Source of the DNA: Gemmatimonadales bacterium
GTDB taxonomy: Bacteria; Gemmatimonadota; Gemmatimonadetes; Gemmatimonadales; GWC2-71-9
Length of the DNA stretch: 64,000 nucleotides
Reading direction: 5' to 3'
Assembly: GCA_041615815.1 (NCBI GenBank)
Contig: JBFJCP010000002.1
Span: forward strand, 173,025 to 237,024
Below are positions 3,930 to 60,142 of the stretch, piece by piece. Under the pieces are notes generated by a model. It was not told the DNA's origin. It was given only the letters and a program-made list of their open reading frames with translations, and made no database searches. Position 1 is the stretch's first letter. Every line of letters starts with the position of its first letter. A program made the translations under genes and the position numbers.

Positions 3930-4509
3930 ACACACCTCCTTGTGAGTGCGAACCGTCGACCGTGCCGTTCGACGGCCCAACAACGCGGACGACAGACGAT
4001 CATGCCGTCTGCCTACCGCTGACGACGTTAGCTGCGTCTAGCGCCGGCACGCACCGGCACTCCCGACACAATGACTACCCAGAGTTTTCAGGGAAGCGCT
4101 CGACGTCCCAGCCCTGGAGTGATCTCTATCGGCGGAGAAACCTGCACAGCCCGACTTCATGGAGGGCCGAAGCCGGAAGGGCAGCCAGGCGACTGCTGCC
4201 TGGTCTTCGCGCGACCAGGGAAAACTCCTGTCGCTGCGACGCTCCAAAAGAGCTAACAAACAACGGTCGGGCGTCACCCCCTTTGGATGGAGCCGGTGGA
4301 TGAGCGGCGATTGTCGCGCGCTCCAATCCAAAACCACATTCCGAAAAGGGCCTCAGTAGTGACAAACGCGAGGCACCCTTCCAGCTCGATCGCGCCCGAA
4401 TGGGAAGTGTTTTTCTCATATAACACCGGCGCCCGGAGCCCGCAAGATCGGAGGAGGCTGTGGCCTCAGCCAGGGCGGTTTGCCAGAGACGCACACCATC
4501 TTCATCCTT

Positions 4510-11835: not shown

Positions 11836-12528
11836 GGGGAACACGGGACCGTTGGCCAGCGTCCCTCGCTCCTTCCGGGCACTCCAAGTTGACCCGTACT
11901 TGACCGGGCCTCACTACTCATTCTCGAGAGAACCTCCCCCACCCCGGGAACGCAAACGACGAGGTGATCACTGCCCGAGCCCTCCGTTTGTGCTCAGGCG
12001 TTGGATCGGTCGCGCCGGTCGCCGACCGGTGCTCGAGACGTCGAGCTCGTGGCGGTTGCCACGCGGCGTCGCGGCGTCGTCTTTGCTCCGCGCGGTTGTG
12101 GCCAGGGAACGGACGCGAAGGTGGCGGACGGCCACTTGGCCCGCGACGCGCATTCCGATTGCCGACGTGGTTAAGTCCCAAGCCGTGCAGATCCGTGCGT
12201 TCGTGACCGTCGTCATCGCCGGAGGACTGCTCGCTCCGCTACCGGATCCGGCTCCGGATTACCTCTCCGGTGTCGAGAAACCGACGTTACACCGAAGGCC
12301 AGCCGAAGCAACCGACGAACGTGCGCGTCCGAGTCGCCTACGGGTGCCAAGCGCCGTGCAGCTCGACTCGTTGCCGCTCGCGGAGCTTCACCGTTTCGGG
12401 ATCGTGATGCGACCGGAAACATGCCAGCGACGCGGGGCGGCGCCACACGTTTATTGCTAACGCTTCCTCGGCCCCAAGGCAGGTCCTGACGGCCACTTAC
12501 CCGATCCCTGCCGTGTTGCGGGTCCCCC
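11836..12528 (-). ncRNA. Candidate large (~690 nt) highly structured non-coding RNA, class not recognised
   Basis: No credible CDS. 5' end GGGG..AACAC..GGGAUCG..UGGCCG pairs with 3' end UGGCCA.CGGUCCC-GUGUU-CCCC. Many internal stems, GCAA/UUCG loops, two apparent pseudoknots, and a TACACT -10 box just upstream (12532-12537). Confidence 0.6.
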
Positions 12529-12667
12529 ACGAGTGTAGTAACCGAAGTGAGGACCGCCGGAGACGTGGAACCGCCGCGACATCGCAAACCGCCTATTTCT
12601 CTCGCAGAATCCCGTCAAATCAGGGTCGAATCACGGCACAAGGGTTGCACCAGCAATCCACAGCGTC

Positions 12668-12755
12668 CCGCTCGGACGCTCGCCGAAGCGAGCCCTCGGT
12701 CGTGTAGGCGTGCGGCGGGTACGCCCAGTCCCGCGCGTCGTGCGCGCCCGAGCGG
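12668..12755 (+). promoter_or_regulatory. Four-way-junction RNA structure in the leader of the coiled-coil/HhH gene
   Basis: Closing stem CCGCUCGG/CCGAGCGG encloses three hairpins (12678-12693, 12707-12725, 12732-12746). G-U pairs favour the + strand. Confidence 0.4.
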
Positions 12756-12836
12756 TGAACAGTCGGTTCCGTCCGAGCACCGAACGTCTGGTGTCGCCGG
12801 AAGCCCCCGGAAGCAAGCGGGGGCGGGAGTCGTATC

Positions 12837-22415: not shown

Positions 22416-23723
22416 TCATAACACACCAGCCGCCAGGGTTGCCAAACCGAGAAAGCTCAGAAACCCCACGACATCCGTGACCGTCGTCAGAACGATCGAT
22501 GACGCCGCAGCAGGATCCTGACCCAGGACACTCAAGATCATCGGAATCGACGCGCCCGCCAACCCCGCAATGACCATCGAGGAAACCATCGCCGTCATGA
22601 TGACACCCGCGAGCCCAGGTGAGCGACTCCATACGTAGACGGCGAGTCCGGTGACCAGCGCAACCGCTACGCCGTTCACAGCTCCAACCATGAGCTCTTT
22701 CCCGGAAATCCGGAACCAATGGCGTACGCGGATCTCGCGAAGCGCGAGCCCGCGCATCGTGACAGCAAGCGCTTGCGCACCGGTGTTGCCCGATTGACCG
22801 GCCACGACCGGCAGCAATACCGCCAGAGCGGTGAATTGCGCGATGGTGCTCTCGAACAGTCCCACGACGAACGCCGCCAAGAACGCCGTAAGTAGATTGA
22901 TCTGGAGCCACGGCAAGCGCTTCCGAACCGCGAACCACGCCGGGGAAAGCGCCCGTTCGTCTTTACTGGCTCCCACCATCGTCTGCACGTCTGCGGATGC
23001 TTCTGCCTCGGTCGCGGCGAGGAGCCCCTGTTGCCGGATGATACCCACGACTCGGCCGTGAAAATCCACCACTGGCACGCTCGGAAGCTGGTGCTGGGTG
23101 AGAACCTCCACCACCTCTGTTTGCGAGGCCGTGGCCTGAACCGCGGGCGGGTGCTTGCGCATGAGACTCTCGAGCGGCGCCCGGGTCTCGGCAATGGCCA
23201 GCTCCTGAAGCGGCACGGCGCCAATGAGCACACCGTCGTCGTCGACCACGACAAGTTGCGGAATTTGTTTATGACGGAGCCTTCGTAGCCTCGCCAGCGC
23301 ATCGAGCACCAGCGCATTGGCTCGGAAGGTCGAGACCCGCGGATCCATCAACCCACCAGCTGAATCGGATGGATACGTCATGAGCGCGCGAAGCTCGGCT
23401 GCCAGTTCATCCGTCAAGAGCCGCAATCGCGCGTCGCGCAGGTCGTCGTCCATGCGCGCGAGGACGGCCGCGACCCAACCGGGATCCACGGCCGGAACGA
23501 TCTGTCGGAACAGGACCTCCGGCAGTCGCTCGAGCACCTCGACGGCCACGTCCGGGCGGAGTCGCTCGGTGAGCGCGATGGCCTGCGTGACCGGTTGGCT
23601 CTCCAACAGTTCCACGATTTCGGCCGGTGGAGCGGACTCAAGCTGGCGGGCAGCTTCTGCCGGATACAACAAGGCAAACCGGTTGGCCAACGCCTGGGCT
23701 GTTCGTTCGTGTTCACTGGCCAT
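22416..23723 (-). CDS. mgtE: Magnesium transporter MgtE
   Basis: MgtE N domain, CBS pair, TM domain 'RKRLPWL', 'GQSGNTGAQ' and 'DPAAASSIVLTTVTDVVG' (pore Asp kept). Confidence 0.93.
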   Translation of the reverse strand: MASEHERTAQALANRFALLYPAEAARQLESAPPAEIVELLESQPVTQAIALTERLRPDVAVEVLERLPEVLFRQIVPAVDPGWVAAVLARMDDDLRDARLRLLTDELAAELRALMTYPSDSAGGLMDPRVSTFRANALVLDALARLRRLRHKQIPQLVVVDDDGVLIGAVPLQELAIAETRAPLESLMRKHPPAVQATASQTEVVEVLTQHQLPSVPVVDFHGRVVGIIRQQGLLAATEAEASADVQTMVGASKDERALSPAWFAVRKRLPWLQINLLTAFLAAFVVGLFESTIAQFTALAVLLPVVAGQSGNTGAQALAVTMRGLALREIRVRHWFRISGKELMVGAVNGVAVALVTGLAVYVWSRSPGLAGVIMTAMVSSMVIAGLAGASIPMILSVLGQDPAAASSIVLTTVTDVVGFLSFLGLATLAAGVL

Positions 23724-24540
23724 CGGTGGCCTCCCGATGTCCTATCGTGCCCTCGAACCCGAACAACACTTTGGAAAAGCCGTTCCAGTAGAGCTCTGCT
23801 AGGTTGATCAGAGGACTGAACCCACTGACGCCGGTCCGTACCTGTTCCATGAGGCGGCGCAGTGCCCGGTGACGGATCACGCCGAGGAAACTTCCCGATC
23901 CGTCTACCACTGGGAGGGCGTCGAATTCCAACCAGGCCGGGTCAGCGGCGACCGTGTGCAGATCGGTGTGCCCGCGCACAGCTACGGGTCCACGACGCAT
24001 GATCGCGTTGAGCGTCGCCGGGCCCGATGAGGACATCAGCTCGCCTAGATCCAGTACACCCACCAATCGATCACCGCGGTCCAGAACGTACAGGTAGGAA
24101 AACACCCGCTCAGGGGCTTGCCGCAGGAGCTTCAGCGCGTCCGCCACCGAGAGGTCTTCGGGCAGCGTGAGCACCGACGGATCGGCCAGGGCACCGGCCG
24201 TGCCCTCGGGGAATCGCAGCAGTCGGGTGACGGCATCCGCCAGATCTCTTGGCAACGTCGAGAGCAACGGCTGCGGATCCTTCATCTGGCGGAGCACCCG
24301 CGCGGCGACCGTGGCAGGGAGCGCGGACACGATGCGAGCGGCCTGTGCCTGATCCATCGCTGCCAGACAGCCACCGGCTCGCGTCGAGCTCATTTGCGAC
24401 AAGACACCCGTGACGTCCGCTGGAGCCAGGATCGCGAGAAACGAAGCGGTATCCGTTGGGGGGAGCCGCTCCATCAGACGCGCCGCATCATCGGGGTGCT
24501 GCGTCGTGAAGGCAACGCCCATTCTCTGTGCGAGTTCCAC
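23713..24540 (-). CDS. MgtE-like cytoplasmic-only protein (N domain + CBS pair, no TM domain)
   Basis: 'FPEGTAGALADP', 'YLYVLD..DRLVGVL' and 'LPVVD...FLGVI'; ends without the membrane domain. GTG start at 24540 with GGAGG. Confidence 0.8.
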   Translation of the reverse strand: MELAQRMGVAFTTQHPDDAARLMERLPPTDTASFLAILAPADVTGVLSQMSSTRAGGCLAAMDQAQAARIVSALPATVAARVLRQMKDPQPLLSTLPRDLADAVTRLLRFPEGTAGALADPSVLTLPEDLSVADALKLLRQAPERVFSYLYVLDRGDRLVGVLDLGELMSSSGPATLNAIMRRGPVAVRGHTDLHTVAADPAWLEFDALPVVDGSGSFLGVIRHRALRRLMEQVRTGVSGFSPLINLAELYWNGFSKVLFGFEGTIGHREATDGQ

Positions 24541-24541
24541 G

Positions 24542-25357
24542 TTAGCTCGCCTCCGTGAGAAGGATGGACGTTTCTTCGCTGAACCGCATTGCGGGAATGT
24601 GGACGCGACCTTCATCGGTATGTACGACAACTGCGGTTGGCGTCGTCTCCACCACCCGCCCCTGTATGGCTCCGATCCGGACCATCTGTCCGGGCCGGTA
24701 GGCTTGGGATGCGTAGTGGGACGCGATGATATTGCTTACCGCGGTGCGTGCCCCCAGACCAAAAGCAATACCCGCACCGCCCAAGAACGTGGCAAAGATC
24801 ACGGCCACGATCACGACGAACAGTTGGCCGCGAATGCCGATCTGCTCCAACCCCACCACGATGGCCACCAGGAGAATCGTAGTCTGGACCGCACGGCCAA
24901 GCGTGGCCGCGCGGGCAATACCGGCGGTGCTCGCGGCGGTGATCACGCCACCACCTGCCAGTTTCCCCACCACGAGACCGCCGACCACGATGAGCACACC
25001 CGCCAGGACATTCGGGAGATAGTGCGTGACTTGTCGCAGCGAGCTGCTGAGCACCGGGAGCCCAAGCGTTTCGATGGCGGCCGCCAGGAAGAGCAAAAGG
25101 ACCAACCAGAAAACGAAACCGCCCACCAAGCGAGCAATCGTGGGCCGGACACCGCTGGTCTCGAGCGCTCTCTCCACCGCGGTGTCCCTCCCGACCCGCC
25201 GTAAGACCCGCTCGGTACCACGGCGACTTGCGACGCGCAGGAGGAGCGCCACGAGCCACCCCAGGAGTAGGAGCCCAGCCGCACTGGCCAGCGTAGGGAG
25301 AAACTGCCCGAGTTCCGACGCAAACGTGCGGAACTGGGCGAGGAACAGTGGTAGCAT
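24542..25357 (-). CDS. Small-conductance mechanosensitive channel-like protein (TM_helix repeats + MscS beta domain)
   Basis: 'YLPNVLAGVLI', 'IAFGLGARTAVSNIIA' and 'G.MVRIG...GRV....T......EG.VHIP'. Start at ATG 25357 with GGAGG. Confidence 0.85.
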   Translation of the reverse strand: MLPLFLAQFRTFASELGQFLPTLASAAGLLLLGWLVALLLRVASRRGTERVLRRVGRDTAVERALETSGVRPTIARLVGGFVFWLVLLLFLAAAIETLGLPVLSSSLRQVTHYLPNVLAGVLIVVGGLVVGKLAGGGVITAASTAGIARAATLGRAVQTTILLVAIVVGLEQIGIRGQLFVVIVAVIFATFLGGAGIAFGLGARTAVSNIIASHYASQAYRPGQMVRIGAIQGRVVETTPTAVVVHTDEGRVHIPAMRFSEETSILLTEAS

Positions 25358-25640
25358 TGGAACCTCCATAAGCGTATCCCGCAAAGCGGATGGCGGCGTT
25401 ATGGGCCACGGACCACGAGGGCACTGCCGCCAGCGTCACCGACCGAACCGCTCGGCATTCAGATGGAAAGTACGGCTCCCCCAGGGTTTCCGGGATTATC
25501 CACCGCTCGGGCCGATGCGCCAGCGAGCACGCCGCTGGCGGATTCGGGCCTGCGGCACATAGTTTGATGATGTGCTCCTGGAAGCCCTCCCCCAAGCGCC
25601 CAGCGCAGCTTCCACGAGAGCAACGGCTTCCATAAACGCA

Positions 25641-27053
25641 ATGTCCCGCCCCGAGCGAGGCCCCGTGACCGACCTCGATCGCCGAGATTTTCTGAAGCAA
25701 TCCGCCGACATGGCGGGCCGCGCCGTCGGGGGCCTCGTCGCTCTTGGCGTCTTCGCCGCCAACCCGCGTCTGGGACCGATGACCCGGCGACCCACCGCCC
25801 CGAAAGGCGATGGTGGCTATGGCAAGTTGGTGCGGGCGGGGCCCGAGCTCGAACTACCCGAAGGGTTCACTTACCGCGTGCTGGGTGCCGAGGGAAGCAC
25901 GATGTCGGACGGCCACGTCACGCCAGGCCGGCACGACGGCATGGGCGCCTTCCCGCTCCCCAACGGGAACATCCGTCTGATCCGCAATCACGAAGTGGAC
26001 AACGTGCCCGCGCGCGATGCCGCCATGGGAAGCCCGGACACGGCCTACGATTTCGCTGCCGGAGGTGGTACGACCTCGTTGGAGGTAGATCCTACCACTC
26101 GCGAACTGGTGCGAGACTTCATCAGCATGAACGGCACATGGCGGAACTGTGCCGGCGGGCCCACGCCGTGGGGGTCCTGGCTTTCGTGTGAAGAAGCGTT
26201 TTTTGGCCCGGAGTCGGGATTCCTCGAATTCCACGGGTACGTGTTCGAGGTCCCTGTCACACGCGAGGAGTGTCAGTACACCGAACCGCTCACCGCCATG
26301 GGTCGGTTCGTCCACGAGGCCGTGGCCGTCGATCCCGCCACGGGCATCGTGTACGAAACGGAGGACCACTATCGCGCCGGGTTTTATCGCTTCCTGCCGG
26401 TGGAGCCCGGGAGAGACGGGAAGCCGGGGAATCTCCGTGCCGGCGGGCGACTGCAGATGTTGGCGGTCCGCAATCGGCCCAAATACGACACTACCAAGGG
26501 GCGGCGCGTGGGAGAGACGCACCCCGTCACCTGGGTCGACATTCAGGAACCGGATCCCAAAGGGGGACCCCGGGCATTCGGGGCCGTGTTCGAACAGGGG
26601 TTTGCCGCCGGTGGAGCGAGATTCAGCCGGCTCGAGGGGTGCTTCTGTGCCAATGGCAACACGTATTTCGTCGCCACGGACGGCGGGAACAAGCAGCTGG
26701 GTCAGGTGTGGCAGTACCGGCCACACGGACCAGACCACGGCGGTCTGACGCTCGTGTTCGAGTCCCCCCACAAGAACATCCTCAAGCGACCAGACAACAT
26801 CTGCGTGAGTCCACGAGGGGCGATCATCATCTGTGAAGATGCGAACGAGCGACGCCAGTACGTGCGTGGGCTCACGAAAGACGGCAAGGTGTTCGATATC
26901 GCTGCCAACATGGCCAATGACACCGAGGTCTCCGGGCCCACGTTCAGCCCCGACGGCAAGACACTCTTCTTCAACTCGTACGGCAATGAAAAACGACGTC
27001 ACGCCGGCATGACGTTCGCCGTGTGGGGCCCGTGGGAGCGGGGCGCCGTTTGA
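25641..27053 (+). CDS. phoX: Tat-secreted PhoX-family (DUF839) alkaline phosphatase
   Basis: 'RRDFLK' Tat motif, 'HDGMGAF', 'RNHE', 'NCAGGPTPWGSWLSCEE', 'MGRFVHEA', 'RLEG' and 'PDNI'. Start 25641 or 25665. Confidence 0.9.
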   Translation: MSRPERGPVTDLDRRDFLKQSADMAGRAVGGLVALGVFAANPRLGPMTRRPTAPKGDGGYGKLVRAGPELELPEGFTYRVLGAEGSTMSDGHVTPGRHDGMGAFPLPNGNIRLIRNHEVDNVPARDAAMGSPDTAYDFAAGGGTTSLEVDPTTRELVRDFISMNGTWRNCAGGPTPWGSWLSCEEAFFGPESGFLEFHGYVFEVPVTREECQYTEPLTAMGRFVHEAVAVDPATGIVYETEDHYRAGFYRFLPVEPGRDGKPGNLRAGGRLQMLAVRNRPKYDTTKGRRVGETHPVTWVDIQEPDPKGGPRAFGAVFEQGFAAGGARFSRLEGCFCANGNTYFVATDGGNKQLGQVWQYRPHGPDHGGLTLVFESPHKNILKRPDNICVSPRGAIIICEDANERRQYVRGLTKDGKVFDIAANMANDTEVSGPTFSPDGKTLFFNSYGNEKRRHAGMTFAVWGPWERGAV

Positions 27054-27131
27054 GCATTCGCCCCTAGCGCGCCGTTCCGGGCATCTGCTGCCCGCGCGGT
27101 GCGTTGGCCCTGTATGGGGGCAGCCGCGGGC

Positions 27132-27884
27132 CTAGAAGCCCCAGGCCACCAGATTGTCGATGAAAGGCTGCGGGACGAGCTCCACCCCGTTGGCATCGGT
27201 CAAGAAGAATATCTTGGCGGGCCGCAAACGCACGATCCCCATCACCGGGATCGTATCATCCATCCATCCCAGGATCTCGACGTGTTCCGGGTCGAACGCC
27301 GTCACGGCAGCCCCGACCACGAAGGGAAGCTCGCCCACCCCGTCCGTGAGCTCGTGATCCGCAAGACGTGTGAGCCTACCGTCCACCACACCCTCTAGCC
27401 CGATACCCAACATCTCGGCCAACTCGTCGGTGGGATCCGTTCCGCGATGATCGCTGAGCAGCACGAGCGTGGTGTGCCGTTCCACGAACCGCGTGTAGGC
27501 CTCGAGCTCTCCGGCCCGGTGGGTCCCCCATTCCCCTGCTCGGATGACGTGCGTGTAGGCGTTCAAGAGGTCGGTCGTCACGACCGCGCCACGTGGGAGC
27601 TCCTCTACCTCGTAACCCCGATCTCTGAGGTGGTCTGCGAGCGCTTGTCCCTGGTGGAACTCGTCTGGGGAAAAGGAGCTGTCCTGGGGGAACCACCACA
27701 CGCCGCCGTCGTGCGAGGCATCGATGAGAATACGCCCATTGGTCGCCGTGGCAGGAGGATCCGGATCTTGCTGCTCCTGCGATCGGTCAGGATCGCCGGT
27801 TTGCGTGAGGGAATCGGTGATCTGACCGCCGCAGGCGGCCATAGCCAACAAGGCGACGAGCGGAACATGCCAGCCACGGTTCAT
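27132..27884 (-). CDS. Hypothetical lipoprotein (GATase-like/DUF4350-like fold)
   Basis: Lipobox 'LLAMAAC'; 'RILIDASHDGG' and 'LVLLSDH'. Start set at ATG 27884. Confidence 0.65.
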   Translation of the reverse strand: MNRGWHVPLVALLAMAACGGQITDSLTQTGDPDRSQEQQDPDPPATATNGRILIDASHDGGVWWFPQDSSFSPDEFHQGQALADHLRDRGYEVEELPRGAVVTTDLLNAYTHVIRAGEWGTHRAGELEAYTRFVERHTTLVLLSDHRGTDPTDELAEMLGIGLEGVVDGRLTRLADHELTDGVGELPFVVGAAVTAFDPEHVEILGWMDDTIPVMGIVRLRPAKIFFLTDANGVELVPQPFIDNLVAWGF

Positions 27885-28052
27885 CTTGCCACCACCTATC
27901 CCGCGGGTTCCGTGGAGCATACCCGGATGGCGCCCCTCCCGTTCCCATCGGATGGCCGCTCCCCAACCGTCACGAGTAGTTAAGGCTCCTTTCACGGTCA
28001 CGCGACCAGAGTGTAAAGAGTGGTGATCCGATCTCCATTCTCGTGAGGTAGT

Positions 28053-28775
28053 ATGACGGGGCTCTTTCAGGTCCGTCTCGCATGGGCGGCGCTGCGCCGG
28101 CCGGTGATTCCCCATCACTGGGATAGACTCCTGTGGAGTACGGGTGCGATCGCGATCGCCGCCGGTGTGATTGTCGTTGCCGTTCCGGGGAAGGTGGCCG
28201 ATTGGGTTGCGTTCTTTGCGGTGGTGGCGATCGCGTGCGGACCCACGACGGTGATCATTCCCTTTGCATCCGAGCCATTCATCATGGCTTTCGGGCGTCT
28301 GCACGAGCCTCTTGTCGTGGCGCTCGTTGGGACCGGGGCAATGTTCGCGATCGAATTCGTGAACTACCAACTGTATGCAGACGTTTTGCACACACGCGCG
28401 CTACGGCGGTTTCGCAATTCCGAGCTGACGCGACGCGTAGTCCAGGGTTTTCGACACCAACCGTTTCTGATCGTGTTCATCGTGGCTTTTGGGCCCATTC
28501 CGTTTGACATGGTTCGAGCCATCTCAGCCATCTCAGCGTATTCGTTTCCCCGATTCCTCACGGCCATGGTCGCCGGCCGATTCCCTCGCCTGTGGTTGAT
28601 TGCGCTGACAGGGAGCGTGCTTCCATTCACCCCAGCCCAGATCCTGGTGTTCGGTCTCGCCATCGCCGTCCTCGTCACCCTATTCGCCGTCCGACGCCAG
28701 GTCCGACGCGGGAGACACGGAATCGACATGCCGCGCGAGCTGTGGGTCACTGAATCCCCAGAGCCGGGGTCGTGA
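28053..28775 (+). CDS. DedA/VTT (SNARE-associated) family membrane protein
   Basis: 'IPFASEPF' and 'GPIPFDMV..ISAI..YSFPRFL.AMVAGRFPR'. Confidence 0.75.
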   Translation: MTGLFQVRLAWAALRRPVIPHHWDRLLWSTGAIAIAAGVIVVAVPGKVADWVAFFAVVAIACGPTTVIIPFASEPFIMAFGRLHEPLVVALVGTGAMFAIEFVNYQLYADVLHTRALRRFRNSELTRRVVQGFRHQPFLIVFIVAFGPIPFDMVRAISAISAYSFPRFLTAMVAGRFPRLWLIALTGSVLPFTPAQILVFGLAIAVLVTLFAVRRQVRRGRHGIDMPRELWVTESPEPGS

Positions 28776-28875
28776 TTCGCACGCAGCTGGAAACGGCGGC
28801 GGGATCGTCACATCCCGCGCCCGCGACATTACCGAAAACCTCACACAGGCTTCACGCTTCGAGGGGCATATTGAT

Positions 28876-29211
28876 GGTCCGCCGGGCGAGAATTGCGGGA
28901 AGGGACCGCGCCGAGTGTAGCGGCTCCCCGTGGATCCGCGTGATCACCTCGACTCGGCATCATGGTGAGGCGAGAAGTCGCGCCCCCTCACCCACGCCGG
29001 TCTGGCGTCCCGGTGTGCCGTACAAGAGGACGGGAAGTCATCTGTCCTGACTTGTAGCGCCCGCGCTGGTGAATCCAACAGGAGGACTGGGTCCACTGTT
29101 GGAGGATGGAAACCGGAGCTCGGAAGGCCCTACCGCCGAAGGCGACTGCGGTGGCCAACCGGAGAAGAACAGGGACCGTGCAAACACTCCCTGACCCCGG
29201 TAACCAGCGCG
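28876..29211 (+). ncRNA. Candidate structured small RNA (~340 nt; core multi-stem domain 29062-29211)
   Basis: Series of stems filling a non-coding gap between convergent genes, ending just before a strong terminator. The 5' boundary is uncertain. Confidence 0.5.
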
Positions 29212-29214
29212 CAG

Positions 29215-29258
29215 GGGCGGCCCCCTCTCGATCTCGAGAGGGGGCTGCCCTTCTTTTT
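29215..29258 (+). terminator. Intrinsic terminator
   Basis: 16-bp stem GGGCGGCCCCCTCTCG/CGAGAGGGGGCTGCCC with ATCT loop, followed by TTCTTTTT. Confidence 0.88.
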
Positions 29259-29291
29259 AGGGGAGACTGACGACGAGCCTGGAGGCTGGTC

Positions 29292-30347
29292 TCACGGCGA
29301 ACGCCTGAGCGGCACGCCACGGGCCAGCAGCAACTCGGCATTGAGTAGGGCCGCCCCCGCCGCCCCGCGAATCGTGTTGTGACTCAGCGTGAGAAATCGA
29401 AATGCCCCGGTGGCGTCCCGTTTGAGCCGTCCCACAGACACCGCCATCCCCCCACCCGCATCCCGGTCGAGCCGCGGCTGCGGCCGGTCCCGCTCAGATC
29501 GCAGCACGATGGGATGGGGTGGGGCCGAGTGGAGCTTCATCTCCTGCGGTGGCCCCGTAAACGTGCGAAATGCCTCGGCCACGTCGTTCACGTCTACCTG
29601 ATTGCGTAACCGGACCCAGACGGCGGCCACATGGCCGTCCTGAACGGCCACTCGATGGCACTGGGCGCTCACGGAGAACGCCGCTTGAGCAGTGATCTGC
29701 CCGCCGTCAGCTGTACCGAAGAGCTTACCGAGCTCCTGCTCCACCTTCTCTTCTTCGTGGGCAATGTACGGCAGGACATTGTCCGTGATGTCGAGGGCGG
29801 AGACGCCGGGGTATCCCGCACCGGAGAGCGCTTGCATGGTGGCCAGCGTGACCGCCTCCACGCCGAACATGCGGTGCAACGGCGCCAGGGCGAGCGCCAC
29901 CATGATCGCGGTGCAATTCGGATTGGTGACGATGAACCCCGGCCCCGAGCGTTGCTCCAGCAGGCACAGGTGGTCCGGGTTTACTTCGGGAATGACGAGT
30001 GGGACCCGCTCGTCCATGCGGTGGGACGACGAGTTGCTGATGACCGGATATCCCTGGTCCGCGAGCGTGGCTTCTACCGGTTCGGCCACGTCACCGGGAA
30101 GACTCGAAAACACCACATCACAGTCCAGGGGTCCCGAGGGCGCGCCAACCACGATGGACCGCGCCCACTGGGGCATCGCACCCGGGAGTCGCCACGTGCA
30201 GGCGTCACCGAACGGTGTGCCTTGCGAGCGATCCGAGGCCGCCAGAGCCGTGACGACGAACTGGGGATGCCCATCGAGCAACTGAATGAAGCGCTGGCCC
30301 ACCATCCCCGTCGCACCCAGGATCCCCACCCGTGTCCGTTGGGTCAT
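29292..30347 (-). CDS. asd: Aspartate-semialdehyde dehydrogenase (archaeal/eukaryotic-like subtype)
   Basis: 'VGILGATGMVGQRFIQLL..HP', 'VTNPNCT', 'QALSGAG' and 'SHNTIRGAAG'. ATGA overlap with the dapD stop. Confidence 0.95.
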   Translation of the reverse strand: MTQRTRVGILGATGMVGQRFIQLLDGHPQFVVTALAASDRSQGTPFGDACTWRLPGAMPQWARSIVVGAPSGPLDCDVVFSSLPGDVAEPVEATLADQGYPVISNSSSHRMDERVPLVIPEVNPDHLCLLEQRSGPGFIVTNPNCTAIMVALALAPLHRMFGVEAVTLATMQALSGAGYPGVSALDITDNVLPYIAHEEEKVEQELGKLFGTADGGQITAQAAFSVSAQCHRVAVQDGHVAAVWVRLRNQVDVNDVAEAFRTFTGPPQEMKLHSAPPHPIVLRSERDRPQPRLDRDAGGGMAVSVGRLKRDATGAFRFLTLSHNTIRGAAGAALLNAELLLARGVPLRRSP

Positions 30348-31177
30348 CGCAGCGCTTCCTCGAGCAGCGTCGACGCATCCGTCTTCGCGTCTCGGTACTT
30401 CACGATCACGGGCGCATAGGCGCTCAATTCCCAGCGCTTCGCATGTTCGCTGCCGAGTGGCCGCGCACCAGGCACCACCACGGCCCGCCGCGGGACCTCG
30501 AGGACACCCCCAGGCGGGCGTCGATATACTTCGCCGCGCACCGCGTCGTACAGCGGCGTCGACCCCGTGAGGATGGTTCCCGCGGCCAAGACCGCGGCCT
30601 CCCCGACCCGCGTCCCTTCGTAGATGCCACACCCCCCGCCCACCAGGACGTCGTCCTCGATGATCACCGGCATGGCCCCAACCGGCTCGAGCACACCGCC
30701 AATCTGCGCCGCTGCTGAGAGATGCACCCGCCTCCCGATCTGGGCACACGAACCGACGAGGGCATGACTGTCGAGCATCGTGCCCTCCGCCACATACGCG
30801 CCCACATTCACATAGGTGGGCGGCATACAGACGACGCCCGGCGCCACGTAGGATCCGCTGCGAATGCTGGTACCGCCGGGAACCACACGCACGCCGTCAG
30901 CGAGGGTCAGCGGGCGCGTGGGATAGGTGTCCTTGTCGAAGAATCGCAGCGTGCCATCGACGGACATGTCCGCGAGGCTGCCCATCCGAAAGCCGATCAG
31001 AATGCCGCGCTTCACCCAGGCGTTGACCCGCCATGTCCCGTCGGGCCCCTGCTCGGCGGCGCGGATCTCCCCACGGTTCAACCCACGGAGAAACTCGTCG
31101 AACGCCGCCCGGTCCGCCGGCGTGTACTGGCCGCTCGGGCGCTCGGCGAGCGCCTCGATGCGGTCACGAAGAGGCAT
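30344..31177 (-). CDS. dapD: Tetrahydrodipicolinate N-succinyltransferase
   Basis: 'W.VNAWVKRGILIGFR', 'YVNVGAYV', 'VGSCAQIG' and 'GGVLEP'. Confidence 0.95.
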   Translation of the reverse strand: MPLRDRIEALAERPSGQYTPADRAAFDEFLRGLNRGEIRAAEQGPDGTWRVNAWVKRGILIGFRMGSLADMSVDGTLRFFDKDTYPTRPLTLADGVRVVPGGTSIRSGSYVAPGVVCMPPTYVNVGAYVAEGTMLDSHALVGSCAQIGRRVHLSAAAQIGGVLEPVGAMPVIIEDDVLVGGGCGIYEGTRVGEAAVLAAGTILTGSTPLYDAVRGEVYRRPPGGVLEVPRRAVVVPGARPLGSEHAKRWELSAYAPVIVKYRDAKTDASTLLEEALR

Positions 31178-32087
31178 GCACCGCCGATGCGAGTAGGTCC
31201 AACTCCTGCAGGAGCGCTGACAGCTTCTGCTTGGTCCGATCTTCCACAGGCACGAGCGGGAGGCGGAAGTGCTCCTCGAGGAGTCCCATGAGCGCGAGGG
31301 CGGCTTTCACCGGTCCCGGATTGGTCTCCAAGAAGTTGGCCTCCATCAATGGGAGAAGTCGATTGTGGAGCCCGCGCGCCGCCTCGAAGTCTCCGCTCAG
31401 CGCCAACACTGTGAGTCGCGCCATCATCTCCGGCGCCTCGTTCCCGACTACCGAGATGACACCATCGGCCCCCAGGGCGATCAGCGGCAGCGTGACCGCG
31501 TCGTCACCAGATAGCACGCGGAAGCCCGCGGGCCGGTCGCGTAGGATCGCCATGATCTGCGAGAGGTTCCCCGACGCTTCTTTGACCGCCACCACGTTGT
31601 CGACCTCGCGGGCCAGTTTGAGCGTTGTCTCTGCCGAAATGTTGCATGCCGTACGCCCGGGGACGTTGTACAACACCACCGGCGTTCCAGGCACCGCCTC
31701 CGCAACCACCCGGAAATGGGCGAAGAGGCCGGCCTGCGTGGGCTTGTTGTAGTATGGAGCCACCACCAACAACGCATCCGCTCCCACGTCGACGGCCGCG
31801 CGCGCGCGTTCCACGACGGCGGCAGTTGCGTTGGTCCCGACCCCTGCGATCACGCGGGCACGGCCGCGGGTGCTCTCGACGGTCAGGGCGATGACCTGTC
31901 GCTGTTCTTCGGCCGTCATGGTGGCGCCTTCGCCGGTGGTGCCGCATGGAACGAGCAAACGCACGCCGCCCTCGATTTGCCGCTCGAGGAGATGCCGCAT
32001 CCGAGGCTCGTCCAGGGCGCCCGTGCGGGTAAATGGGGTCACCAGCGCGGTGGCGCATCCTTTTAACCATTCCACTGTCTGGGTCAT
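31164..32087 (-). CDS. dapA: 4-hydroxy-tetrahydrodipicolinate synthase
   Basis: 'ALVTPF', 'GTTGE', 'PYYNKP', 'YNVPGRT' and 'KEASG'. Confidence 0.97.
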   Translation of the reverse strand: MTQTVEWLKGCATALVTPFTRTGALDEPRMRHLLERQIEGGVRLLVPCGTTGEGATMTAEEQRQVIALTVESTRGRARVIAGVGTNATAAVVERARAAVDVGADALLVVAPYYNKPTQAGLFAHFRVVAEAVPGTPVVLYNVPGRTACNISAETTLKLAREVDNVVAVKEASGNLSQIMAILRDRPAGFRVLSGDDAVTLPLIALGADGVISVVGNEAPEMMARLTVLALSGDFEAARGLHNRLLPLMEANFLETNPGPVKAALALMGLLEEHFRLPLVPVEDRTKQKLSALLQELDLLASAVHASS

Positions 32088-59860: not shown

Positions 59861-60142
59861 TGTCGCCGAGCAACGGCTGAGCGCCCCTCACGAACGAAGG
59901 GGTACGACACTCACGAGCGTATGGATCACCAACAGCCGTGGCAAGCACCCCAGCAGAGGAATCGGCGAAACCCATAGCTGCCTGGGCTGCAAGGGTAGGC
60001 TCCGGAGATGACACGGAGATGACAGTAAGCGCACGACGGCTTGGGAGGACGGCGATCGCCGCCTGCCCAGACCTGGCGGTGGTCGGGGGGACCGAGCAAC
60101 GGAGGTCGCGACCTCCGATGACCGCCGTCCCTCAGCGCTCGA

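Follow-up and report, generated by a model that had tools for sequence, protein, structure and literature searches.

A structured non-coding RNA gene of a Gemmatimonadales bacterium belongs to a conserved double-pseudoknot RNA family with a candidate protein partner

Introduction

What lies between a dedA-like gene and the lysine operon of a Gemmatimonadales bacterium? In the 64,000-nucleotide stretch of contig JBFJCP010000002.1 (assembly GCA_041615815.1, positions 173,025 to 237,024) analysed here and called the window, the segment 28876..29258 is rich in potential stems, and an earlier note made from the sequence alone had proposed an orphan structured RNA with its own terminator, either an independent non-coding RNA or a highly structured 3' untranslated region of the dedA-like gene. 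Large, well-folded bacterial RNAs are rare, and those with known functions run basic processes. 6S and Ms1 are abundant free RNAs tied to growth phase.

Two such RNAs provide the closest points of comparison. OLE RNA, found in Bacillota and membrane-bound, is described in the cited passages as a large, ornate, stand-alone bacterial RNA of ~600 nt (PMC12054373), the biochemical function of which is unknown, with protein partners that stand out by phylogenetic profiling and with shortened variants (PMC11332333). The raiA RNA (ModT) is presented as an abundant trans-acting RNA encoded at one locus per genome and linked to stationary-phase entry and differentiation; it has a compact core with two pseudoknots, one of them a 6-bp helix formed from a hairpin loop, a conserved P1 joining the 5' and 3' ends, optional stems, and minimal variants (PMC12968392, PMC10861870).

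Results

A separately transcribed RNA gene

The region 28876..29258 is a separately transcribed, non-protein-coding structured RNA gene of ~380 nt on the + strand (~28879-29258; Table 1). We regard it as a standalone gene, the first of the two options of the earlier note, because it belongs to a conserved family with compensatory changes, possesses its own promoter and terminator, and is matched by RNA-library contigs confined to the element. The 411-nt region folds at -204.7 kcal/mol (z = -4.57), which none of 100 shuffled sequences equalled. A terminator scan located the proposed terminator as a hairpin at 29213-29252, in which we counted 18 pairs with G-U allowed, followed by a U-tract, and a terminator-like hairpin, variable in sequence, also follows the RNA in the homologues inspected. 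In the interval from the terminator to the end of asd (29292), no ORF of at least 60 aa begins on the same strand, so that no same-strand gene follows, as had been noticed. The convergence with the lysine operon is incidental, since downstream neighbours differ across the RNA family.

Table 1. Features of the RNA gene and its neighbours (window coordinates)
Feature	Position	Strand	Details
DedA/VTT-domain gene	28053..28775	+	PF09335, E 1.9e-11; homologues occur without the RNA; neighbour only, outside the system
Direct repeat, YTTCAY-N5-YTTCAY type	28839..28855	+	11-bp spacing, over the -35 region; class III promoter element
-10-like hexamer	28867..28872	+	11 nt past the repeat, as in other class III copies
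5' accessory domain	28879..28962	+	Closing helix 28881-90/28948-58, inner helix 28902-09/28920-28; missing from minimal members
Family core, ~95 nt	28963..29062	+	Hairpins 28964-70/28986-92, 28993-29000/29010-17 and 29021-34/29041-56 (the last with an internal loop)
3' multibranch domain	29062..29211	+	Conserved purine-rich junctions 29104-12 and 29163-69; central helix 29113-18/29195-200; GCAA-capped arm; helices 7-14 of the 14-helix family structure
Intrinsic terminator hairpin and U-tract	29213..29258	+	Terminator scan
asd-type semialdehyde dehydrogenase, last lysine-operon gene	29292..30329	-	PF02774 and PF01118, ORF list; convergent, neighbour only

RNA-library (Logan) contigs from four metatranscriptome runs of one study match the element at 99% identity or more and cover 28887-29219, with starts at 28887-28901; the runs were located with this RNA sequence itself, and the contigs, which may include DNA, carry neither strand, ends nor level. 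Apart from short foreign matches, no gene within 26500-31500 is covered by contigs of these runs. In each of the four runs the cover breaks off at the predicted ends of the RNA, as would suit a discrete, stable molecule. One more contig (depth 185) is similar to the window RNA in two short segments only and probably derives from the RNA of a relative.

These data bear directly on a cis-acting element, whether a dedA 3' UTR, a riboswitch, or a small ORF. The RNA does lie on the same strand ~100 nt past the dedA-like stop, and it overlaps a 92-aa (+) and a 117-aa (-) ORF; however, none of nine loci of dedA homologues in relatives carries the RNA, the contigs stop short of dedA, the terminator comes right after the fold with no same-strand gene beyond, and the spacing between two anchors in the family is spread over all three frames (139, 47, and 46 of 232). 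We therefore consider a cis-acting element very improbable. A riboswitch or leader was rejected on the additional grounds that the next gene is convergent and the downstream genes vary in the family.

Other features of the window were recorded as well. At 22416-27053, 2-6 kb upstream of the RNA, lie a MgtE-like CBS magnesium transporter gene, a second CBS-like ORF, a mechanosensitive-channel-like gene, and an ORF that we take by eye to be PhoX-like. A 249-nt intergenic stretch at 4017-4265 (- strand) with nested hairpins (-109 kcal/mol) is possibly the first orphan RNA of the earlier note; it had no gathering-level Rfam match and no BLAST homologue among 40 relatives. Two further intergenic gaps of ~300 nt are located at 12461-12761 and 59861-60142.

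A conserved RNA family with a doubly knotted core

The description of the RNA as an orphan did not survive a profile search, which found three copies in the same genome (C8:53739-54062, C46:9333-9656, and the window copy, the lowest-scoring and most divergent of the three). BLAST returned matches in 12 of 61 genomes, the genome of origin included, and eight loci in relatives are real homologues; the weak matches L004, L006, L007, and L016-L019 were discarded as coding or chance. An exact-pattern scan, the one search on which the distribution outside the phylum rests, yielded at least 120 loci, and among the matches listed 79 of 80 titles name Gemmatimonadota and one an uncultured bacterium. 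The core is present in 73 of 151 genomes of the phylum. By taxonomic family, the core model detected it in 70/71 genomes of f1, 2/2 of f3, and 0/77 others, and in an order-level sample it occurs in 13/13, 12/13, and 0/15 genomes, respectively; remote forms may be missed because only 20-103 candidates per genome were scored. The model of the 3' domain found 55 of the 71 f1 genomes, the domain being reduced or lost in some lineages. Family RNAs are 120-430 nt long and occur in 1-3 copies per genome. As to a mobile origin, two exact patterns found no match in viral contigs and blastn none in phage or plasmid records, and this possibility was dismissed.

The homologue search and covariation analysis that had been proposed as a check strongly support the RNA. 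Of the 83 pairs, 66 show two-sided change across the 45 diverse members compared, among them pairs in both pseudoknots, and one helix is uninformative in this respect because it is nearly invariant. The hand-built structure (83 pairs in 14 helices) is paired in 94.7% of 3706 cells across the 45 members, a level that none of 500 shuffles reached, compared with 38-42% in slid controls, over which the structure has some advantage as it was drawn on one member of the alignment.

Two pseudoknots lock the core. In pseudoknot 1 the loops of core hairpins 1 and 3 kiss over 6 bp; pseudoknot 2 (5 bp) joins the middle loop to the core tail. Both were rewritten with compensation in one member (L383), and pseudoknot 1 likewise in two others (L013 and L177). 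L218 and L225 consist of little beyond a promoter, the 95-nt core, and a terminator, and the minimal forms L218, L187, and L310 are without the 5' accessory domain. Because some members keep little beyond promoter, core, and terminator, we see the functional unit in the core and treat the flanking 5' and 3' domains as accessory; the irreducible part of the RNA is the 95-nt three-hairpin core locked by two pseudoknots, to which the two domains are added as optional modules.

Separately, we observed at L186 (G167:C9:42890-43060) that a 3' fragment has been duplicated from a class III RNA (classes are defined below by promoter type); it lacks the core and lies 6.5 kb from the full copy.

Fold of the window copy

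All stems listed in the earlier note are present in the sequence: 28876-80/28903-07, 28910-16/28952-58, 28964-70/28986-92, and 29062-70/29203-11 are exact complements as placed, and the inner helices 29074-81/29096-103 and 29170-75/29188-93 and the GCAA tip at 29180-83 were confirmed as well. The first two are probably not native and belong to an alternative fold, as judged from alignment, because homologues support instead the closing and inner helices of the 5' accessory domain (Table 1); the family pseudoknots and the promoter had been overlooked. In 25 founder copies, the 5'-domain helices covary with two-sided change in 31 of 38 predicted pairs, and the domain is also supported by a class III alignment and constrained folding. 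Folding energy alone does not decide the matter: in the isolated 5' domain the nested family-type fold is the minimum-energy structure (-36.4 vs -34.3 with the alternative stems forced), whereas whole-length folding of the window copy as a single sequence yields those stems.

The window copy is recognised by the core model R2, from the training of which it was excluded, with 68.9 bits (E 2.4e-10), and by the 3'-domain model R1, among the training rows of which it stands, with 94.4 bits (E 2.6e-20). Its pseudoknot 2 (29004-08 with 29057-61) is intact; its kissing-loop pseudoknot 1 is lost. The longest loop-loop complement in the window core is 2 bp, compared with at least 4 in 134 of the 135 other cores scored and at least 6 in 126. 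Pairing of 28975-80 with 29049-54, considered as a substitute for the kissing loop, competes with a conserved helix and is unsupported, and the palindromic tetraloops of the 5' domain, considered as dimer sites, are too variable among homologues.

Such a loss may mean that the family is functional and the window copy a decaying, still transcribed paralogue. In this direction point the absence of a recognisable pseudoknot 1 partner loop, for which the window copy is alone among 136 scored cores, its lowest scores among the three genomic copies, and one A-C mismatch in the central 3' helix, which is nearly invariant in the family. Furthermore, the two same-genus genomes carry two and three copies, one of them a minimal class III form with an intact kiss, and in neither did we find an equivalent full-length class III copy. 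Against decay, other helices have been kept through heavy sequence change, as in the arm 29074-103, which is rewritten with its helix preserved; the promoter, terminator, and pseudoknot 2 are intact and RNA contigs exist; and the central-helix variant recurs in L186. On balance we judge decay unlikely as an account of the locus; the window copy itself is compatible with both a specialised variant and early decay.

Comparison with known RNAs

In the proposed cmscan check against the 4227 families of Rfam, no gathering-level match was found in the window, and the three copies gave only chance hairpin matches; ARAGORN found nothing in the window. Identity with tmRNA, RNase P RNA, or SRP RNA was rejected, the genome having its own genes for these (C1:50779-51133, C8:105464-105828, and C3:132708-132805). 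Our search of the main texts of open-access papers on gemmatimonad non-coding RNAs revealed no description of this RNA, and PMC11109978 does not mention the phylum.

The pseudoknot-1 loop sequence may resemble that of raiA. Like that RNA, the family has optional peripheral stems and minimal variants, is apparently abundant, and would act in trans; its two covarying pseudoknots (6 and 5 bp) may be counterparts of those in the raiA core, but their strand order differs from the one described in PMC12968392. The raiA model RF03072 found nothing in the genome at E up to 10, nor on the three single copies. The family has no helix closing the ends: its 5' helices pair locally, its 3' domain closes on itself, and minimal members are without both ends. 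Pseudoknot 2 is formed here by a hairpin loop and the 3' tail of the core, and there are 1-3 copies with different promoters. The likeness to OLE RNA consists in a stand-alone ornate RNA, a candidate partner that stands out by tracking it across genomes (see below), and shortened variants, whereas the present family is shorter, has a soluble-looking alpha/beta candidate partner, and has no Rfam match.

An RNA-polymerase-binding RNA replacing 6S or Ms1 in the lineage deserves consideration. The 6S model RF00013 found nothing in the genome or on the three copies, and none of 40 Gemmatimonadales genomes has a 6S above the Rfam cut-off (one weak match, E 0.026), which leaves the order's 6S either divergent or absent; moreover, the RNA is apparently abundant and has a growth-state-type promoter. 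However, 6S is a rod with a central bubble, whereas the present fold is multibranched and knotted, and there is no complementary pattern of presence, because the family f2 has neither a detectable 6S nor the window RNA. A 6S stand-in thus seems to us improbable.

We rate no higher the proposal that the double-pseudoknot core serves as the active site of a ribozyme or of a ligand-binding RNA, with the protein as a helper. Compact cores that are knotted twice and contain invariant unpaired bases are a typical trait of small ribozymes, and in some lineages (L218, L225) the core with a promoter and a terminator suffices. On the other hand, no Rfam model of a self-cleaving ribozyme (HDV-like, twister, glmS, and others) matches the three copies, no link to mobile DNA was found, and, as a weak argument, RNA contigs pass unbroken through the core.

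A 206-aa protein as candidate partner

The commonest neighbour of the RNA (61 of 91 loci) is a gene for a 206-aa protein, which in the genome of origin lies beside one copy, called the founder (G000:C8:54303-54914). The protein is single-copy in 93/95 genomes of f1 and 3/3 of f3 and is found in 0/102 others. The same 73 genomes carry the RNA core and the protein, with the gene within 1 kb of an RNA copy in 72, and in the single exception the RNA lies near a contig start; G024 and G058 are without both, which a shared assembly gap may explain. In 120 founder-type loci with enough flank, the gene is upstream on the same strand in 104 and downstream and convergent in 12, a total adjacency (116/120) slightly too low because one class III locus (L010) was counted as class I, and also inflated because part of the loci were fetched through the protein, so that the genome-level 72/73 is the cleaner figure. 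None of 24 class II or III loci adjoins the gene. As the gene is upstream on the same strand in f1 and downstream and convergent in f3 and still remains beside the RNA, the adjacency has survived rearrangement; the counts for RNA and protein are weakened by kinship because the co-occurrence lies within one clade. The 3' domain is unnecessary for the link, since lineages missing the whole domain keep the protein.

Searches with the protein found no Pfam or NCBIfam family, no Atlas match, no solved relative (best E 0.06), and no Foldseek match at E 0.001 in the PDB or viral libraries; the 132 clusters from a profile search are for the most part fragments of the family itself. The predicted structure (pLDDT 85) is soluble-looking and comprises two similar alpha/beta halves, an internal repeat. 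No RNA-binding fold can be recognised in the protein (best Z 3.8), which is also not particularly basic; a PCNA/clamp fold, the top match of a wide structural search, was rejected, its Z of 3.8 (rmsd 4.5, 111 aligned) being tied with unrelated folds. Blank structural searches do not prove a new fold.

Neighbouring genes of RNA metabolism were also recorded. An Archease gene and a gene that we take by eye to encode an RtcB-like RNA ligase are convergent with the founder RNA (L142:2699-4619, G000:C8), and RtcB-like genes flank L011, L014, and L186; this is not general in the family.

The 206-aa protein is probably the partner of the RNA core, an assignment drawn from genome comparison in the same way that the partners of OLE RNA are described, in the passage cited, as having been singled out by phylogenetic profiling (PMC11332333). 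By analogy with OLE and the Oap proteins, it is likely that the family acts as a ribonucleoprotein in which the core binds the protein encoded beside the founder copy.

Promoter classes and neighbourhoods

Three classes of copies differ in their promoters. Class I, the founder beside the protein gene, has a sigma-70-like promoter with a conserved upstream element, and DnaA-box-like sites (general consensus, two mismatches allowed) occur upstream of 103 founder promoters at 3.9 per 200 nt vs 0.19 in the background. Of 11 genomes checked, seven have the founder 41-135 kb from dnaA and two have it 316-377 kb away, and in the other two it is on a different contig. Class II copies are shorter and have box-like sites too. 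Class III copies, to which the window copy belongs, have no DnaA-box-like cluster and carry instead an 11-bp direct repeat over the -35 region, the strict pattern of which is present in 0/103 founder promoters; the 11-bp spacing recurs upstream of most medium-length paralogues. In the window copy, the transcription start is inferred to lie near 28879; its -10 hexamer was not called by a generic sigma-70 scan, and its repeat takes rank 19 among the 85 sites that a matrix, trained with the window site left out, retrieved from the genome.

The box clusters preceding class I and II copies, together with a founder usually near dnaA, could mean that the conserved unit is mainly DNA, a cluster of boxes near the origin titrating DnaA, with the RNA and the protein gene as passengers or local modulators. 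We give this little credence: the 66 pairs with compensatory changes indicate that the RNA itself is under selection, the protein gene in f3 lies on the 3' side of the RNA, away from the boxes, and class III copies, the window copy included, lack the cluster.

Further box-like sites were observed elsewhere in the genome. A second cluster at G000:C16:46070-46400 (L143, L414), where the upstream element and -35 resemble those of the founder RNA promoter, precedes a small ORF without a Pfam family and may share the founder regulon. The dnaA-dnaN spacer (G000:C8:102160-102390), with several box-like sites and an AT-rich tract, is likely the replication origin; its distance to the founder RNA is ~47 kb and that to the RNase P RNA gene 3 kb.

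The direct repeat, of OmpR/PhoB-type pattern, is probably a response-regulator site, a prediction from promoter sequence. Control of the window copy by PhoB was rejected: the pstS promoter has a different repeat and is absent from the 85 sites, and because of this different repeat the window repeat is probably no Pho box. That other 11-bp repeat (C10, L258) is itself a Pho-box candidate. An apparent direct-repeat regulon comprises the 85 genome sites with a -10 at fixed distance (for example, C13:46360, C24:67706, C13:69565, C29:32638, and C3:61390); at the 16 sites looked up, the repeat precedes genes for Hsp20, PGA_cap, cytochrome c, an outer-membrane barrel, and an amino-acid dehydrogenase.

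USP, CBS, Hsp20, erythromycin-esterase, and baeRF proteins are members of DosR-type dormancy regulons. Within ~1 kb of 15 of 24 class III loci lies a USP, CBS, phosphoribosyltransferase, HPF/S30AE, BON, erythromycin-esterase, or baeRF gene, as judged from 87 of the 110 candidate ORFs (the others were excluded as likely shadow frames). Such neighbours occur at 0/23 founder loci, for which only the downstream side was counted. No gene of the USP/CBS type immediately adjoins the window copy itself. Descriptions of the mycobacterial DosR regulon list an HPF-like ribosome factor, phosphoribosyltransferases, RtcB, and a PGA_cap protein (PMC5309233), and genes of these kinds neighbour class III copies and the repeat motif. 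The class III site, however, is an 11-bp direct repeat and not the DosR palindrome.

Discussion

We tentatively favour, at slightly less than even confidence, a reading in which the window RNA is a secondary copy of a lineage-specific trans-acting RNA that forms an OLE/raiA-like RNA-protein particle tied to growth state. In this mechanism, the RNA would act in trans, scaffolding a particle that also contains the 206-aa protein. The founder copy would be driven by a DnaA-box-like promoter near the origin, and its supply would track the replication state because of the position and the sites of that promoter. Class III copies, placed under a direct-repeat promoter of putative two-component type shared with dormancy- or hypoxia-type genes, may supply variant RNA at growth arrest, the window copy among them. 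With pseudoknot 2 and all helices kept and the kissing loop opened, the window copy could be a looser form of the RNA, which would compete for the same protein or retune it. It is an extra, probably stress-induced copy.

Whether the particle helps to switch cells between growth and non-growth seems to us an evenly balanced matter; such a role is suggested by the promoter types and by analogy with raiA as presented in PMC10861870 and PMC12968392. The paralogues under different promoters (DnaA-box-like and dormancy-like) differ from the one locus per genome described there for raiA and hint at when the RNA acts.

Neither the RNA nor its candidate partner could be placed in a known family, and the doubly knotted RNA is undescribed in the literature searched. 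In two families of bacteria abundant in soil and sediment, almost all genomes sampled carry this RNA (70/71 and 12/13). Natural deletions narrow it down to a 95-nt core, and a single-copy protein encoded next to it offers an obvious candidate partner, so that binding, structure, and activity are testable in vitro without culturing. A bolder and rather doubtful extension is that the family constitutes a ribonucleoprotein machine, a core with swappable domains and a protein of unrecognised fold, in which the window copy would be a purpose-built stress isoform. If this were true, the machine would link the state of chromosome replication to dormancy in these bacteria, through the founder and the two-component-driven paralogues.
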